UHGV virus genome: UHGV-0070112
Direction: 5' to 3' (one strand)
Source: a virus
DNA length: 32,150 nucleotides
The translations under genes were made by a program, and so were the position numbers. Position 1 is the stretch's first letter. Every line of letters starts with the position of its first letter. Under the pieces are notes generated by a model, which saw nothing but the letters and a program-made list of their open reading frames with translations, was not told the origin of the DNA and did not search any database. Shown here piece by piece: positions 6,657-23,828 of this stretch.

Positions 6657-7242
6657 CGCGCGGCCGCGACGTTAGAACCATGGGTATTTTAACTACATAA
6701 GGTTATGAAGATCTTCGGAAAAAATGAGATGATGGTTTGTTTGGTTATTTAATGAGCGAAAACAGCCAAAATCCCCATGCAGGGATGATAAAAAACGTCA
6801 TTGTGTAGACGACTGCAGGCTGTAATTTATTCAAATTAAATTTCCTTAGTAGGGCTCTATGTGTCCTACAACATCCAACCTACCTAAAGACATTGATTGA
6901 TACAAGAGGAAAAACACTACTTTTTTATCAAATTGGGATCGGTTTTGTTTCCGATGGCGCGGCATTATACGGAGATAACCCAAGTTATCAACAGAAATTG
7001 CCAGCATATGTACGCAAAATGTGCTGTTTCTAATTTTGAGATGGTTGTGGTGCCGGGTGCCTCCCGGTGAGCATGCCCCAACAGACATTACTCGCGCGGT
7101 ATTCACAGGGCTTTCGCTCTATTAGTTGGACGCCCCTCCGCATAGGGGGATTCACCACACGGATAATTTAGGATGTAGTCATAGGCGGCGTCAATAACTG
7201 ACACTCTGTCAAAGGCACCATTACGATGCCTTTTGCACAGTG

Positions 7243-20792: not shown

Positions 20793-21344
20793 TTATTTCT
20801 CCATACACAAAGATTTATTCGCCACGACGCCCGGAGCTGCACACTCGCGGGCGTCACTATTTTCTGGCAGGCAATAAACACGAGAAATCAGGTTGAGAAA
20901 CGTCATCAGCGTGACCCTGAACTGGTAGGCGATATCATTCAGACTTTGCCACTCCCCGTGTGTAACCACCCCATCATCGATATATTCCCGATAGGCGCTG
21001 ACCAGCTCGCCGAGTTGTCCCACCAGCTCCGCCAGCTTCAAACCAATCTCTTCGTTCTCGTCTTCATGAGCTGCGCCAGATACATGGATCCCGTTGTCGG
21101 TTTCACGTGAAAAAACATCGGCGATGTAGCTAACACCTGCTGCCTTCTGCAGGACCATTGCCCAGCCCATAGGGAATATCTGATCTCCACCAGCACGCAG
21201 CCGGTTAAAGATCGCGTCCTGGGTGGTATCCAGAATCTCAGCTGCTTCGATATAGCCACCAGGTAACGCGGCTATTGTTTTACGGATTGCTGCCACCAGC
21301 CACGCGGGCTGTTTTTCTACTTTCCAGGTTGGTTCATTACCCAC
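20793..21344 (-). CDS. cII-position regulatory protein (family uncertain)
   Basis: Start revised to GTG 21344 with AAGGGG RBS just after the cro stop; the track start at 21431 would overlap cro by 59 nt. Occupies the cII position. Confidence 0.4.
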   Translation of the reverse strand: MGNEPTWKVEKQPAWLVAAIRKTIAALPGGYIEAAEILDTTQDAIFNRLRAGGDQIFPMGWAMVLQKAAGVSYIADVFSRETDNGIHVSGAAHEDENEEIGLKLAELVGQLGELVSAYREYIDDGVVTHGEWQSLNDIAYQFRVTLMTFLNLISRVYCLPENSDARECAAPGVVANKSLCMEK

Positions 21345-21372
21345 GGTGTACCCCTTATCTCTGTGGTTCCTA

Positions 21373-21582
21373 TCAAACTTTTTGTTCTTTAAGCTTGCTA
21401 TACAGCTCCGGTTGGAAAACAAGTTTCCCATCGGTGCGGTACGCGGCTTCAGCAGCCCTCCCTTTTGGGATCAAGCGACCGGGTCTGTTCCGCCACTGAT
21501 AAACAGCTTCGCTGGATATGCCAAAGAACTCGGCTACCTTCTCAGCGTTTCCAAAGTACTTTTCAACATCATCGGTGGTCAT
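21373..21582 (-). CDS. cro: Cro-like repressor (HTH)
   Basis: 69 aa with HTH (VAEFFGISSEAVYQWRNR). AGGAG RBS. Divergent from cI across an operator-bearing gap. Confidence 0.65.
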   Translation of the reverse strand: MTTDDVEKYFGNAEKVAEFFGISSEAVYQWRNRPGRLIPKGRAAEAAYRTDGKLVFQPELYSKLKEQKV

Positions 21583-21682
21583 AATGGCTCCTTTAACTAA
21601 GTTTGATTAGATAATAATTACCAATCTATCTTTGGTCAATAAAAACTAAGATTGCTTAGCTTGATTGACTACTGGTGTGTAA
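21583..21682. promoter_or_regulatory. Right operator/promoter region between cro and cI
   Basis: 100-bp AT-rich gap carrying CTAAGtttgaTTAG (21596-21609) and CTAAGattgCTTAG (21645-21658); the same half-site family recurs downstream of cI. Confidence 0.45.
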
Positions 21683-22309
21683 ATGGAAACTGTCGGACAA
21701 CGAATAAAATCGCTTAGGCGAATCACCAGAACCTCACAAAAAGAGCTTGGGAAGTTTTGTGGGGTCAGTGATGTCGCAGTTGGGTATTGGGAAAAGGACG
21801 TAAACGTCCCAGGAGGGGAATCTCTTTCCAAACTAGCAAAATTCTTCAATACATCAATTGATTACATACTTTTTGGCACTGAGTTTGAGGGAAACTTAAT
21901 AACTAAGATGCGAAAAGTTCCCGTGATATCGTGGGTGCAAGCAGGATTATTCACTGAATCAAAGCCTGAAGATGTCTTGCATGATGCCGAAAAATGGGTG
22001 GAAACGTCTCTCCGCATCAGCGATAACTCGTTTGCCCTTGAAGTAAAGGGAGACTCAATGACAAATCCTAATGGACTGCCCACGATTCCTGAAGGCGCAA
22101 CGGTCATCGTTGATCCAGACATTGAGCCAATTCATGGAAAGATTGTAGTTGCACGAATAGATGGGACCAACGAGGCCACGGTCAAAAAACTGGTTGTAGA
22201 CGGTCCGCAAAAATTTCTTGTCCCGCTAAATCCCCGTTATCCTAACATCGCCATCAATGGTAACTGCGTCATTATTGGTGTGGTTAAAGGCGTTCAATAC
22301 GAGCTCTGA
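21683..22309 (+). CDS. cI: CI-type repressor (HTH plus S24 LexA-like peptidase domain)
   Basis: 208 aa; N-terminal HTH (TSQKELGKFCGVSDVAVGYWEK), C-terminal S24 domain with catalytic-serine motif KGDSM and downstream Lys. Confidence 0.85.
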   Translation: METVGQRIKSLRRITRTSQKELGKFCGVSDVAVGYWEKDVNVPGGESLSKLAKFFNTSIDYILFGTEFEGNLITKMRKVPVISWVQAGLFTESKPEDVLHDAEKWVETSLRISDNSFALEVKGDSMTNPNGLPTIPEGATVIVDPDIEPIHGKIVVARIDGTNEATVKKLVVDGPQKFLVPLNPRYPNIAINGNCVIIGVVKGVQYEL

Positions 22310-22327
22310 TCTAAGCTAATCTCCCTT

Positions 22328-22358
22328 CGACACCAAGCTAAGAAAAGTTTGGTGTTTT
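22328..22358 (+). terminator. Intrinsic terminator after cI
   Basis: Stem ACACCAA / TTGGTGT with 12-nt loop, followed by TTTTT. Confidence 0.5.
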
Positions 22359-22369
22359 TTCTTGACGAC

Positions 22370-22398
22370 AAAACTAAGTTAAGTTAGATTTTCATCTA
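22370..22398 (+). promoter_or_regulatory. Candidate PL promoter with embedded left operator
   Basis: TTGACG, 17-bp spacer, TAGATT. The spacer holds CTAAGttaaGTTAG, the same half-site family as the cro-cI operators. Confidence 0.4.
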
Positions 22399-22494
22399 TC
22401 AACAGCGAAGAGGCAGGACGCCCACGAAGTAGCCGCCCGGGGCATATGAAGTCCGGGATGATTCGCTGACAGATAAACCAAATAGGAACAGATC

Positions 22495-22728
22495 ATGGCA
22501 AGCAAAGGCATTGAAAACCTTATCAAGGACGCATTAGCAAACGGCTGTCATGTAGTCCGTAAAGCGCATCGCTTCGAGGTAAGCAAGAAAGGCCAAAAAT
22601 CAATCACTCTTATTATTTGTGAAGATGGCACAGCTTACCGGGGAGATATTGACCTAACGATCGCCATAGCCATTCGCACTCAAAAAGAAATGCGCAGCAT
22701 CCTCGGCCTGCCGGCCAAGGCAAGTTAA
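22495..22728 (+). CDS. Hypothetical 77-aa protein, first ORF after candidate PL
   Basis: AGGA RBS 8 nt upstream; no recognisable motif; not Arg-rich. Sits in the slot lambda uses for rexAB. Confidence 0.4.
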   Translation: MASKGIENLIKDALANGCHVVRKAHRFEVSKKGQKSITLIICEDGTAYRGDIDLTIAIAIRTQKEMRSILGLPAKAS

Positions 22729-23360
22729 TTACCACAGGTATCTTCGGGAGGGGTTGCGAAGCTGGATTGACCACCAGCAACAGAAACTCACCCGACATAC
22801 AGCAGCCGTTTAACCCACGGCGTCGGGGGTCCAGTAGACCTGGATTAATACTGTAGGGGTTGTGCCGGTTGGTCGCCGGCGCCCCGCCCGAAGATACCTG
22901 AACGAACATGGCGAAGCCGACAGCGTTGAAGGCGATTTTCTCGGTTTGCGCGCTAAACAATAGCGGGGGTGAAATCGGGGCGGAGAAGCAGAATCCGCGA
23001 TGTCGGGACTTGATACTTCCGGCCATACCAACAAGCCGAATGATCGCGTAACGATCCTTTGCATCTGCCCCGGCGAGGTGGCGCCGCCGGACCGGGGTAG
23101 ATGAATCGTACACAACATGAAAGCGCATTCCATCTTCATCCGTCGTGGGGACTGGTTTGTAACTGAAGGAGTGCGCTTCCAGTTGTGAACGGCAATATTC
23201 ACGACCGTTGTATGGCACATGCAGCGTTAGCAGCCCGGATGGTTCCCTTGAAGTTCCATGCGCTATCCGGACAACTGGAATGTGCAAGCCAAGTGTTTCA
23301 GGCACGACGTGCGCCCCACCAGCGCGGCGAAAAGGTGTGACGCCCGGGAAGAGTCCGGGA

Positions 23361-23475
23361 CACAACAGGTAAGAGCATTCCCGCCACACGAGGCTGAAAC
23401 CCAATCGCCATGTGGATGCGCCGAAAAGCTACGACGGGGCGTTGGTAGAAGATCGGAGTGCTCTCTCCGTTGTGG
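23361..23475 (+). other. Paired-motif element, early-left copy
   Basis: CACAACAGGTAAGAGCATT ... ~77 nt ... GGAGTGCTCTCTCCGTTGTGG on the plus strand; same arm sequences as 8374-8476. Inside a GC-rich ORF-poor stretch. Confidence 0.3.
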
Positions 23476-23616
23476 TAATTGCGGCTATGCGCACGTGGCG
23501 AGCCAACCCGTTCATGGAATGCGTTTCCGGGCAGTGTACGTCGCCGGTTATGGCTTAACCCGGCAGGTGGAGGCACCACCGCCACAACCTAGTTAACTGT
23601 GCTGTGTGTAGTCTTG

Positions 23617-23687
23617 GCGGTTATCCAGTTTTCCACTATCCAAAGGAGGAAGAGGATAACGTTCTGATGGATAACCGCCCTTTTTAC
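23617..23687 (+). promoter_or_regulatory. 11-bp perfect inverted repeat enclosing the RBS and start of a small ORF
   Basis: GGCGGTTATCC (23617-23627) and GGATAACCGCC (23669-23679) bracket AAGGAGGAAGAGGA and the ATG at 23667; followed by CTTTTTAC. Confidence 0.4.
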
Positions 23688-23828
23688 ACAATACACAAGA
23701 GCATCACCGGGCGACGGGCTCATTACCCAATCCACCCGGGCGGATTTGCAGCCGCAGGTGCTCTTCTGTGTTGTGTACGGAGAAATTCCCGGCGGTGGCA
23801 GCCGCCTTTCGAGAGGGTAAAACCATGA
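23667..23828 (+). CDS. Hypothetical 53-aa Arg-rich protein
   Basis: MDNRPFYTIHKSITGRRAHYPIHPGGFAAAGALLCCVRRNSRRWQPPFERVKP. GAGGA RBS 10 nt upstream; stop overlaps the next gene's ATG (ATGA). Could be spurious in GC-rich DNA. Confidence 0.3.
   Translation: MDNRPFYTIHKSITGRRAHYPIHPGGFAAAGALLCCVRRNSRRWQPPFERVKP

Follow-up and report, generated by a model that had tools for sequence, protein, structure and literature searches.

The immunity region of the virus genome UHGV-0070112 (UHGV) was analysed within a stretch of 32,150 nucleotides, which is called the window here and from whose first letter all positions are counted. Two divergent genes frame a spacer: a cro-like gene of 69 amino acids (aa) on the minus strand (21373..21582; Pfam P22_Cro, E = 2.2e-12) and a gene for a cI-type repressor of 208 aa on the plus strand (21683..22309; Pfam HTH_3 and Peptidase_S24, with PDB matches). 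Past the repressor gene the plus strand carries the cI terminator (22329..22362), whose hairpin was called at 22329-22356 in our scan and whose T-run reaches into the -35 hexamer of the next promoter. That promoter, TTGACG-17-TAGATT (22362..22390), resembles the early-left promoter (PL) of lambdoid phages and is followed by a 66-nt structured RNA, here called R1 (22403..22468). The initial annotation had placed the TTGACG promoter just past the cI terminator, and an independent promoter and terminator scan recovered it there.

The repressor is predicted to join a DNA-binding domain of the P22 C2 type to a self-cleaving domain of the lambda cI/LexA type. Residues 3-69 align without gaps to the C2 DNA-binding domain (phmmer, E = 4e-11 to 8e-11; PDB 1ADR, 2R1J and 3JXB), and the structures matched include ones solved with operator DNA. 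Residue n of the window repressor corresponds to residue n+2 of C2; Val31 is the counterpart of P22 Val33, while Asn32, Ser36 and Gln37 of the P22 recognition helix are replaced by Asp30, Gly34 and Tyr35. The Peptidase_S24 match is strong (Pfam, E = 6e-28), and residues 76-205 align with the C-terminal domain of lambda cI (E = 2e-27; PDB 2HO0/3BDN), with VQAG, GDSM and VKKL in register. The predicted site of self-cleavage is Ala87-Gly88 and the predicted catalytic pair is Ser125 and Lys168.

Inverted repeats had been described twice between cro and cI and once more after the cI terminator, and an exact search for CTAAG-N5-TTAG found the same three places: 21597-21610 (CTAAGTTTGATTAG), 21646-21659 (CTAAGATTGCTTAG, a perfect palindrome) and 22374-22387 (CTAAGTTAAGTTAG). 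There was no match elsewhere in the window; 0.16 would be expected in its whole length, and none of 100 shuffles gave as many as three. Adding the common flanks to obtain the 18-mer AACTAAGnTTnnTTAGnT returned the same three places only, and CTAA-N6-TTAG is the core that is invariant in all six half-sites. The half-site family had been written as CTAAG paired with (C/G)TTAG; the left halves fit this description, whereas the first site ends in ATTAG. When one mismatch was allowed, matches at 21704-21717, 22316-22329 and 22338-22351 were added, making a cluster of six places against only three in the remaining 31 kb. In the motif search over the whole window, proposed earlier as a check, exact matches thus lie in the immunity region alone.

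The sites were compared with their counterparts in the immunity regions of 23 distinct relatives, which span seven genera; Escherichia, Enterobacter, Kosakonia, Kluyvera, Serratia and Rahnella are among their sources, as are IMG/VR contigs. The match at 21704-21717 falls within cI, and our alignment of the relatives over the cro-cI spacer ends near 21723. The match at 22316-22329 was considered as a third site of the left operator region (OL) and is not claimed, as it is not kept in the relatives.

In the right operator region (OR), O_R1 is the 18-bp operator AACTAAGTTTGATTAGAT (21595..21612), an exact match to the motif that is kept in the 23 relatives with a variable centre and that aligns with P22 OR1. 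It adjoins the -10 hexamer of a promoter resembling the early-right promoter (PR), TTGACC-17-TATTAT (21611..21639, minus strand; 10/12 consensus match in the scan), which would drive cro, and it covers the predicted PR start (about 21604). O_R3, AACTAAGATTGCTTAGCT (21644..21661), is also an exact match and forms a perfect CTAAG/CTTAG dyad. The middle operator, O_R2, is the degenerate TACCAATCTATCTTTGGT (21619..21636), which sits in the PR spacer and -35 and was assigned by positional homology to P22 OR2; the centres of the sites are 24 bp (O_R1 to O_R2) and 25 bp (O_R2 to O_R3) apart. Its left half, ACCAAAG, compares with ACTAAAG in P22 OR2 and carries the same C at position 3 as the other window operators. 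The O_R2 position has a TTAG right half in six of the 23 relatives, and a good CTAAT-N5-TTAG site occupies it in two Rahnella loci. By these comparisons the predicted OR is tripartite, with two exact sites and a middle one that is weak in the window.

The window OR, AACTAAGTTTGATTAGAT-aataat-TACCAATCTATCTTTGGT-caataaa-AACTAAGATTGCTTAGCT, can be set column for column against the cro-c2 spacer of the annotated P22 record, which in the window's orientation reads AATTAAAGAACACTTAAAT-tatct-ACTAAAGGAATCTTTAGT-caagtt-TATTTAAGATGACTTAACT-ATG. Both PR hexamers are kept across the relatives, and the -35 (GGTCAA on the plus strand) aligns with the -35 of P22 PR. O_R3 contains TAAGAT (21647-21652), the same hexamer in the same half-site as the annotated -10 of the P22 repressor maintenance promoter (PRM), and by this analogy it is probably the PRM -10 of the window. 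The AT that follows CTAAG is invariant across the 23 relatives in O_R3 alone among the sites. The analogy also suggests that PRM starts near 21658, which would give cI a leader some 25 nt long that carries a GGTG ribosome-binding site. A different hexamer, TAGCTT at 21657-21662, had been considered as the PRM -10 and was dropped for TAAGAT after the P22 annotation was aligned.

On the other side of cI, O_L1 (AACTAAGTTAAGTTAGAT, 22372..22389) is an exact match that lies within the spacer and -10 of PL, in the position of P22 OL1. The promoter lines up in register with PL as annotated in P22 (TTGACC-atttAATTAAGAAGTCTTAAATttt in P22, TTGACG-acaaAACTAAGTTAAGTTAGATttt in the window), and so does the operator. 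Among the relatives the -10 does not vary and the -35 hardly does, and O_L1 itself is essentially invariant in 22 of 23. A candidate second site, O_L2 (AGCTAAGAAAAGTTTGGT, 22336..22353), contains the one-mismatch match CTAAGAAAAGTTTG (22338-22351), lies 36 bp upstream of O_L1 and falls inside the cI terminator, in its loop and 3' arm. The terminator stem covaries among the relatives (CACCAA/TTGGTG versus CATCAA/TTGATG), and the CTAAG of the left half of O_L2 is fixed in most of the 23 despite its location in the hairpin loop. Loop bases have no structural reason to stay fixed, so the constancy of CTAAG supports the candidate O_L2. Every element of the OR/OL arrangement in the initial annotation survived our tests; its list was incomplete and had missed the middle OR site and O_L2. 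A small RNA, svsR, has been described at the 3' end of cI in related Escherichia coli prophages in a 2026 paper (PMC12803456); the 3' end of cI and its terminator lie at 22290-22360 in the window.

The location of the early-left start, which had been read from the position of this promoter, is supported by the transcripts of known phages. Those from lambda and P22 PL start AUCAGCAGGACGC, the A of which is the annotated start in the P22 record, and the window reads AUCAACAGCGAAGAGGCAGGACGC from 22398. Homology to the P22 and lambda starts places the predicted early-left start at the A of AUCAACAG (22398, plus strand), 7 nt past the -10 and 5 nt before the conserved RNA begins. The PL transcripts of lambda, P22 and the window (22398-22422) all open with AUCA(G/A)CAG and contain CAGGACGC at differing offsets, and P22 boxB, GAUGAUGCGCUGACAAAGCGC, resembles GAUGAUUCGCUGACAG of the window. 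There are hints in these sequences that the PL leaders share ancestry despite their different antitermination devices.

Conservation in relatives was assessed at several distances. A scan for the repressor in one genome per species gave ten loci with 82-88% identity (Enterobacter, Kosakonia, Kluyvera, Serratia and Rahnella), and the E. coli version, 84% identical, is present in 459 complete genomes. In the 23 distinct immunity regions the three strong sites lie at the same distances from the cI start, with the consensus sequences aaCTAAGTTTtaTTAGAT for O_R1, AAACTAAGATtaCTTAG for O_R3 and AACTAAGTTAAGTTAGATT for O_L1; the weaker sites give C(n)AAT-N5-TT(t/a)GG (O_R2) and aCTAAG-N5-TTTGG (O_L2). 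The outer bases of the operators are fixed and the centres vary, as in O_R1, where TTTGA, TTTGG, TTTTA, TTTTT and TTAAG are found. The helix-turn-helix, TSQK(E/D)LGKFCGVSDVAVGYWEKD, is invariant in all 23. Against the E. coli relative, the intergenic region, with 87% identity, is better conserved than the genes, the whole match at 21300-22469 reaching 74%. The nearest relatives of the window at the DNA level are e14-like prophages.

In P22 numbering the half-site reads A1-(A/G/T)2-C3-T4-A5-A6-G7, where P22 has A-T-T-T-A-A-G; AACTAAG and ATTTAAG differ at positions 2 and 3, and C stands at position 3 in all strong half-sites. The P22 repressor contacts operator positions 2-7 and 12-17 and not 8-11, and a T-to-C change at position 3 lowers its binding to non-specific levels (PMC4267663). 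Because position 3 is C, which abolishes specific binding of the P22 repressor, the window operators would confer an immunity separate from that of P22, and the ATTTAAG half-sites with T at position 3 that would mark homoimmunity with P22 are not those of the window. More distant relatives show the half-site changing with the repressor. Xenorhabdus and Photorhabdus repressors (43-46% identity) have the helix VSHVAISQWEKE; their half-sites, TTAAG-N4-CTTAA, are of the P22 type and stand at three places in OR, within the PL spacer, and again 35 bp ahead of the PL-spacer site. Relatives in Morganella and Proteus have the helix VNRVTVTGWEKG and GTAAG/GTAGG-ATAT-CCTAC/CTTAC at the same positions; across these heteroimmune relatives (41-46% identity) the upstream site lies 33-35 bp from the one in the PL spacer. 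E. coli K-12 e14 has GTACC…GGTAC dyads in OR and TGTACCtttgagaTACA in the PL spacer; its repressor YmfK has an unrelated N-terminal domain and shares the C-terminal domain. For the operators of YmfK the literature yielded just one table entry, 'SOS-sensitive repressor'. Phages phiNP and SPN3UB carry palindromes of their own within the PL spacer.

The OR/OL arrangement read in the initial annotation stands, and its nearest model is P22, not lambda. With P22 immC the window shares a homologous repressor N-terminal domain that keeps the Val33 equivalent, a Cro of the P22_Cro family, and three 18-bp OR dyads spaced 23-25 bp in the same register to the PR -35 and -10. It also shares the PRM -10 TAAGAT in the left half of OR3 and OL1 in the PL spacer/-10, with OL2 35 bp upstream in P22 against 36 bp in the window. 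In both the middle OR site is the most degenerate, and the sites have a TAAG core and an uncontacted A/T-rich centre. The window thus shows the traits of a P22 C2/lambdoid immC-type region: a C2-like helix-turn-helix, an S24 domain, a divergent cro with PR and a PRM placed by analogy back to back in the spacer, an OR triad with a weak middle site, and OL operators of the same family over PL, downstream of the repressor gene and in its orientation. The window departs from P22 in that O_L2 overlaps the cI terminator, in that there is no convincing third OL site, and in that a structured RNA takes the slot after PL that gene 24 (N) and nutL hold in P22. Lambda resembles the window in the C-terminal domain, with its Ala-Gly site and Ser/Lys dyad, in the divergent cI and cro, and in the terminator between the repressor operon and PL. 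Its N-terminal domain and 17-bp operators are unrelated, and the window lacks rexAB, N and a boxA/boxB nutL. Prophage e14 (YmfK/YmfT/YmfL) has the same gene order, a YmfL-like gene (CII-like PHROG 101) beside cro and the leader RNA after PL, whereas the unrelated N-terminal domain of K-12 YmfK and the GTACC-type dyads mark it as heteroimmune.

Taken together, the interval very probably serves a lambdoid prophage as its immunity switch and follows the P22 immC plan, with operators at the sites given above. The operators are one more heteroimmune version of the P22/lambda switch and in that respect textbook biology; their DNA specificity is new. The proposed mechanism is as follows. A repressor dimer would bind 18-bp dyads with the half-site A-(A/G/T)-C-T-A-A-G and four uncontacted, A/T-rich central base pairs. 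Three such operators would lie between cro and cI (O_R1 at the PR -10 and start, O_R2 in the PR spacer and -35, O_R3 over PRM) and at least two past cI (O_L1 in the PL spacer and -10, O_L2 36 bp upstream in the cI terminator). In the lysogen, both PR and PL would be silenced by repressor bound to O_R1/O_R2 and O_L1/O_L2, while PRM transcripts would end at the cI terminator, ahead of PL. When DNA is damaged, the repressor, stimulated by RecA, would cleave itself at Ala87-Gly88 and so release both promoters, after which Cro would use the same operator sites and early-left transcription would proceed from about 22398. The first 70 nt of the PL transcript would fold as the conserved RNA in the nutL/putL slot and, less certainly, may permit read-through of terminators.

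This reading is built on sequence, homology, positional orthology and the co-variation of operator with recognition helix, from which we infer binding, site order, cooperativity and promoter activity. Several points weigh against it. We found no binding, footprint, transcription-start or reporter data for this type of repressor. O_R2 and O_L2 are too degenerate for significance on their own and rest on positional homology, and the conservation of O_L2 has a second explanation, because its right half doubles as terminator stem. The consensus promoter scan gave no PRM on the plus strand, so that PRM is placed by analogy with P22 alone, and the cI leader that follows from this placement, some 25 nt long and provided with a ribosome-binding site, differs from the 4-nt leader of P22. 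Finally, the perfect palindrome is O_R3, which overlaps PRM, and not O_R1; because of this the lambda order of repressor affinities need not hold.

Cro and cI normally share operators, so sequence cannot by itself assign a site to one of them, and O_R3, the most regular palindrome, lies over PRM, at the place that Cro occupies first in lambda. On these grounds the dyads might be bound by Cro or another regulator only, with the S24 repressor recognizing different sequences. We regard this as highly unlikely, since the half-site changes along with the repressor recognition helix in three heteroimmune groups, the layout agrees in register with the sites that the P22 record marks as bound by the C2 repressor, and TAAG is common to the window half-site and the P22 C2 operator while the repressor N-terminal domain is a C2 homolog. 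It is most improbable that the promoter at 22362-22390 is the private promoter of an accessory gene (moron), the 77-aa open reading frame (ORF) downstream (22495-22728, plus strand; phrog_12911), and not the early-left promoter. That ORF does behave as an inserted gene, since ST64B, phiNP and the E. coli relative all lack it at this place, but PL and its operator are kept in relatives that lack it, the promoter is in register with P22 PL/OL1, and the beginning of its transcript shows homology to the PL leaders of lambda and P22. The ORF moreover lies downstream of the leader RNA, which points to an insertion inside the operon that came without a promoter. Short palindromes occur often in the A/T-rich DNA of intergenic promoters, yet the notion that the repeats are chance products of such DNA, with no binding role, is effectively refuted by three matches where 0.16 are expected and none elsewhere, and by positions and outer bases that are kept across genera while the centres vary.

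Placing the early-left start also exposed the RNA behind PL. R1 begins 5 nt after the predicted PL start and consists of a closing stem, P1 (22403-22409 / 22462-22468), a mini-hairpin GGC-AGGAC-GCC (22412-22422) and a hairpin, P3, with a 12-nt loop (22436-22440 / 22453-22457). The sequence 22403-22468 keeps 92-97% identity among phages whose immunity regions are unrelated. Loci from a pattern scan of IMG/VR, combined with those found earlier, gave 95 distinct variants, in which pairing held in 92% of cells, compared with 72% after shuffling and 21-42% with the partners slid; double-change cells numbered 282 versus 85. Both stems covary strongly, P1 occurring for example as CAGCGAA/UUCGCUG, ACGAA/UUCGU, CCACC/GGUGG and CAUC/GAUG, and P3 as CCCGG/CCGGG, CCUGG/CCAGG, CCGAC/GUCGG, CCACC/GGUGG and CUACA/UGUAG. 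Between the helices CAGGCAGGACGCCCACGAAGUAGCCGCC and GGAUGA are nearly invariant, the element CAGGACGCCCACGAAGUAGCC is invariant, and a core of 28 nt is unchanged across hosts from Escherichia to Photorhabdus. The R1 covariance model found one copy in the window (96.6 bits). Rfam returned nothing at the operators or the leader RNA, either for the whole window at gathering thresholds or for 22300-23800 at E <= 5.

R1 is widespread and keeps its position behind PL promoters that are heteroimmune to one another, in phages with no recognisable N protein. It is present in 51 phage records and in 1,865 of 5,426 complete E. coli genomes (34%), always unannotated, including K-12 e14 (1,202,114-1,202,179). 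A sigma-70 promoter scoring at least 9/12 lies within 85 nt upstream in 61 of 105 R1 contexts, compared with 0 of 105 in the downstream control, and in 48 of the 105 the -10 ends 13-16 nt before P1. The last gene upstream is an immunity-repressor homolog, of five types, in 84 of 103 loci. Each phage has a single copy, and none lies behind PR.

The position of R1 recalls that of the early antitermination elements of lambdoid phages. For the N/nut system one would look for an N-family first early-left gene and a nutL with boxA and boxB, and neither was found: ten early-left-side ORFs gave no PHROG or Pfam match to an N-like protein, and alignment of the window leader with the lambda and P22 PL leaders revealed no boxA or boxB. 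The put RNA of phage HK022 suppresses terminators without a dedicated factor and is blocked by mutations in the beta-prime zinc-binding domain of RNA polymerase. R1 has in common with HK022 putL a start a few nt after the PL start, a length of about 65-70 nt, a phage without an N homolog, a place upstream of terminators and the short words CGAAC(A)GGC and GGAUGA; it thus stands at the 5' end of the PL transcript of an N-less phage as put does. The two differ in structure, put being two side-by-side stem-loops and R1 a three-way junction closed by P1, and R1 has no counterpart to putR. Homology between R1 and put was considered and rejected, as BLAST, the covariance model and inspection gave short common words only. 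BLAST with the leader RNA returned no HK022 or HK639 record.

Relatives that share the window's immunity and lack R1 have other structured leaders after PL and no obvious N. Long structured leaders of this kind follow directly on PL/O_L1 in two Rahnella loci (L011, 3217-3305, and L015) and two Enterobacter loci (L006 and L012); one example is CACAACGGGAAGGACACUGG…CCAGUGUUCUUCCCGUUGUG around GGGUUGA…UCAACCC. There may be several interchangeable classes of leader RNA.

We tentatively suggest that R1 could be a new class of cis-acting processive antiterminator, analogous to HK022 put and not homologous with it; this remains a possibility short of a probable one. Its users may be the N-less lambdoids (e14, SfV, ST64B, phiNP, LLS, the Gifsy-like SPN3UB and mEp237), and it has been remarked that LLS/ST64B/phiNP-type phages, which lack N, may use a put-like RNA (PMC12315714). 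Against an antitermination role of the put kind, the covariance model gave no match to HK022 putL (L004, 4313-4239) or putR at E <= 10 with filters off. The chances are evenly balanced that R1 does something else, as a stabiliser of the 5' end, as a small RNA or sponge released by processing, or as a nut-like site at which some unrecognised phage protein acts. At its end the P3 loop has GAAGN, which recalls the GAAGA loop of lambda nutL boxB, and related prophages are reported to carry a small RNA near cI (PMC12803456); the single copy per phage, with none behind PR, also favours such roles. Other observations speak against them. The genes downstream of R1 are mosaic and unrelated, which makes a gene-specific cis-regulator unlikely, the 28-nt core that is invariant from Escherichia to Photorhabdus suggests a conserved host partner, no phage gene was seen to co-occur with R1, and a strong terminator separates R1 from the rest of the operon.

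The early-left operon continues after R1 with the 77-aa ORF, about 1 kb of non-coding DNA, yfdP-, yfdQ- and yfdR-like genes, a ParB-like gene, a PAPS (phosphoadenosine phosphosulfate)-reductase-like gene and the integrase. The ORF appears to behave like a moron inside the operon, and in ST64B and phiNP the leader RNA abuts the non-coding stretch with no ORF between them. This stretch (22730-23700, plus strand) has 59-61% GC. A coding function was rejected for it, because substitutions show no 3-periodicity and the indels (1, 2, 4, 5, 7 and 17) are not multiples of three. The stretch is mosaic, its modules recurring piecemeal in 131 phage records, with compensatory changes in its hairpins, and the junction word ACACAACAnGnAAGAGCAT recurs near 23108, 23360 and 23690. 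Between R1 and the yfdP-like gene lies a strong intrinsic-terminator-like hairpin (23616..23686, plus strand), with a 12-bp stem (GGCGGUUAUCCA/UGGAUAACCGCC) followed by CUUUUUA. The 117-nt fold that holds this hairpin has a free energy (dG) of -41 and a z score of -4.1, and its stem covaries in a further locus, L203. A conserved single-stranded word, GCUGUGUGUAGUCUU, precedes the hairpin in the region 23603-23686, which is overlapped by a sub-threshold DicF-like Rfam match (16.5 bits, E = 1.7). The region 23603-23686 may form the 3' end of a small RNA of the DicF kind that is cut out of the early-left transcript.

Two further observations concern the window at large. Chi (GCTGGTGG) occurs 17 times (for example at 21020, 21187, 21293, 22771 and 23316) where 1.2 are expected, and 14 of the sites are on the minus strand. 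Far from the immunity region, 6989-7189 (minus strand) matches the small RNA STnc100 above the Rfam gathering score (71.6 bits, E = 1.3e-13).

With respect to the switch itself, the half-sites CTAAG, TTAAG and GTAAG with the helices VSDVAVGYWEKD, VSHVAISQWEKE and VNRVTVTGWEKG form a natural specificity series that may be of use in dissecting direct readout by C2-type repressors, and the candidate operator O_L2, embedded in a terminator hairpin, is a further point of modest value. The early-left start has now been placed by homology, which exposed a covarying RNA behind many different PL promoters. If R1 is an antiterminator, it would explain transcription past terminators such as that at 23616-23686 to the early-left genes and the integrase. 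It would then answer a question that recent papers have raised, namely how early antitermination comes about in lambdoid phages that lack N, and would represent a second RNA class that reprograms RNA polymerase. The leader RNA may matter more than the operators and merits a study of its own.

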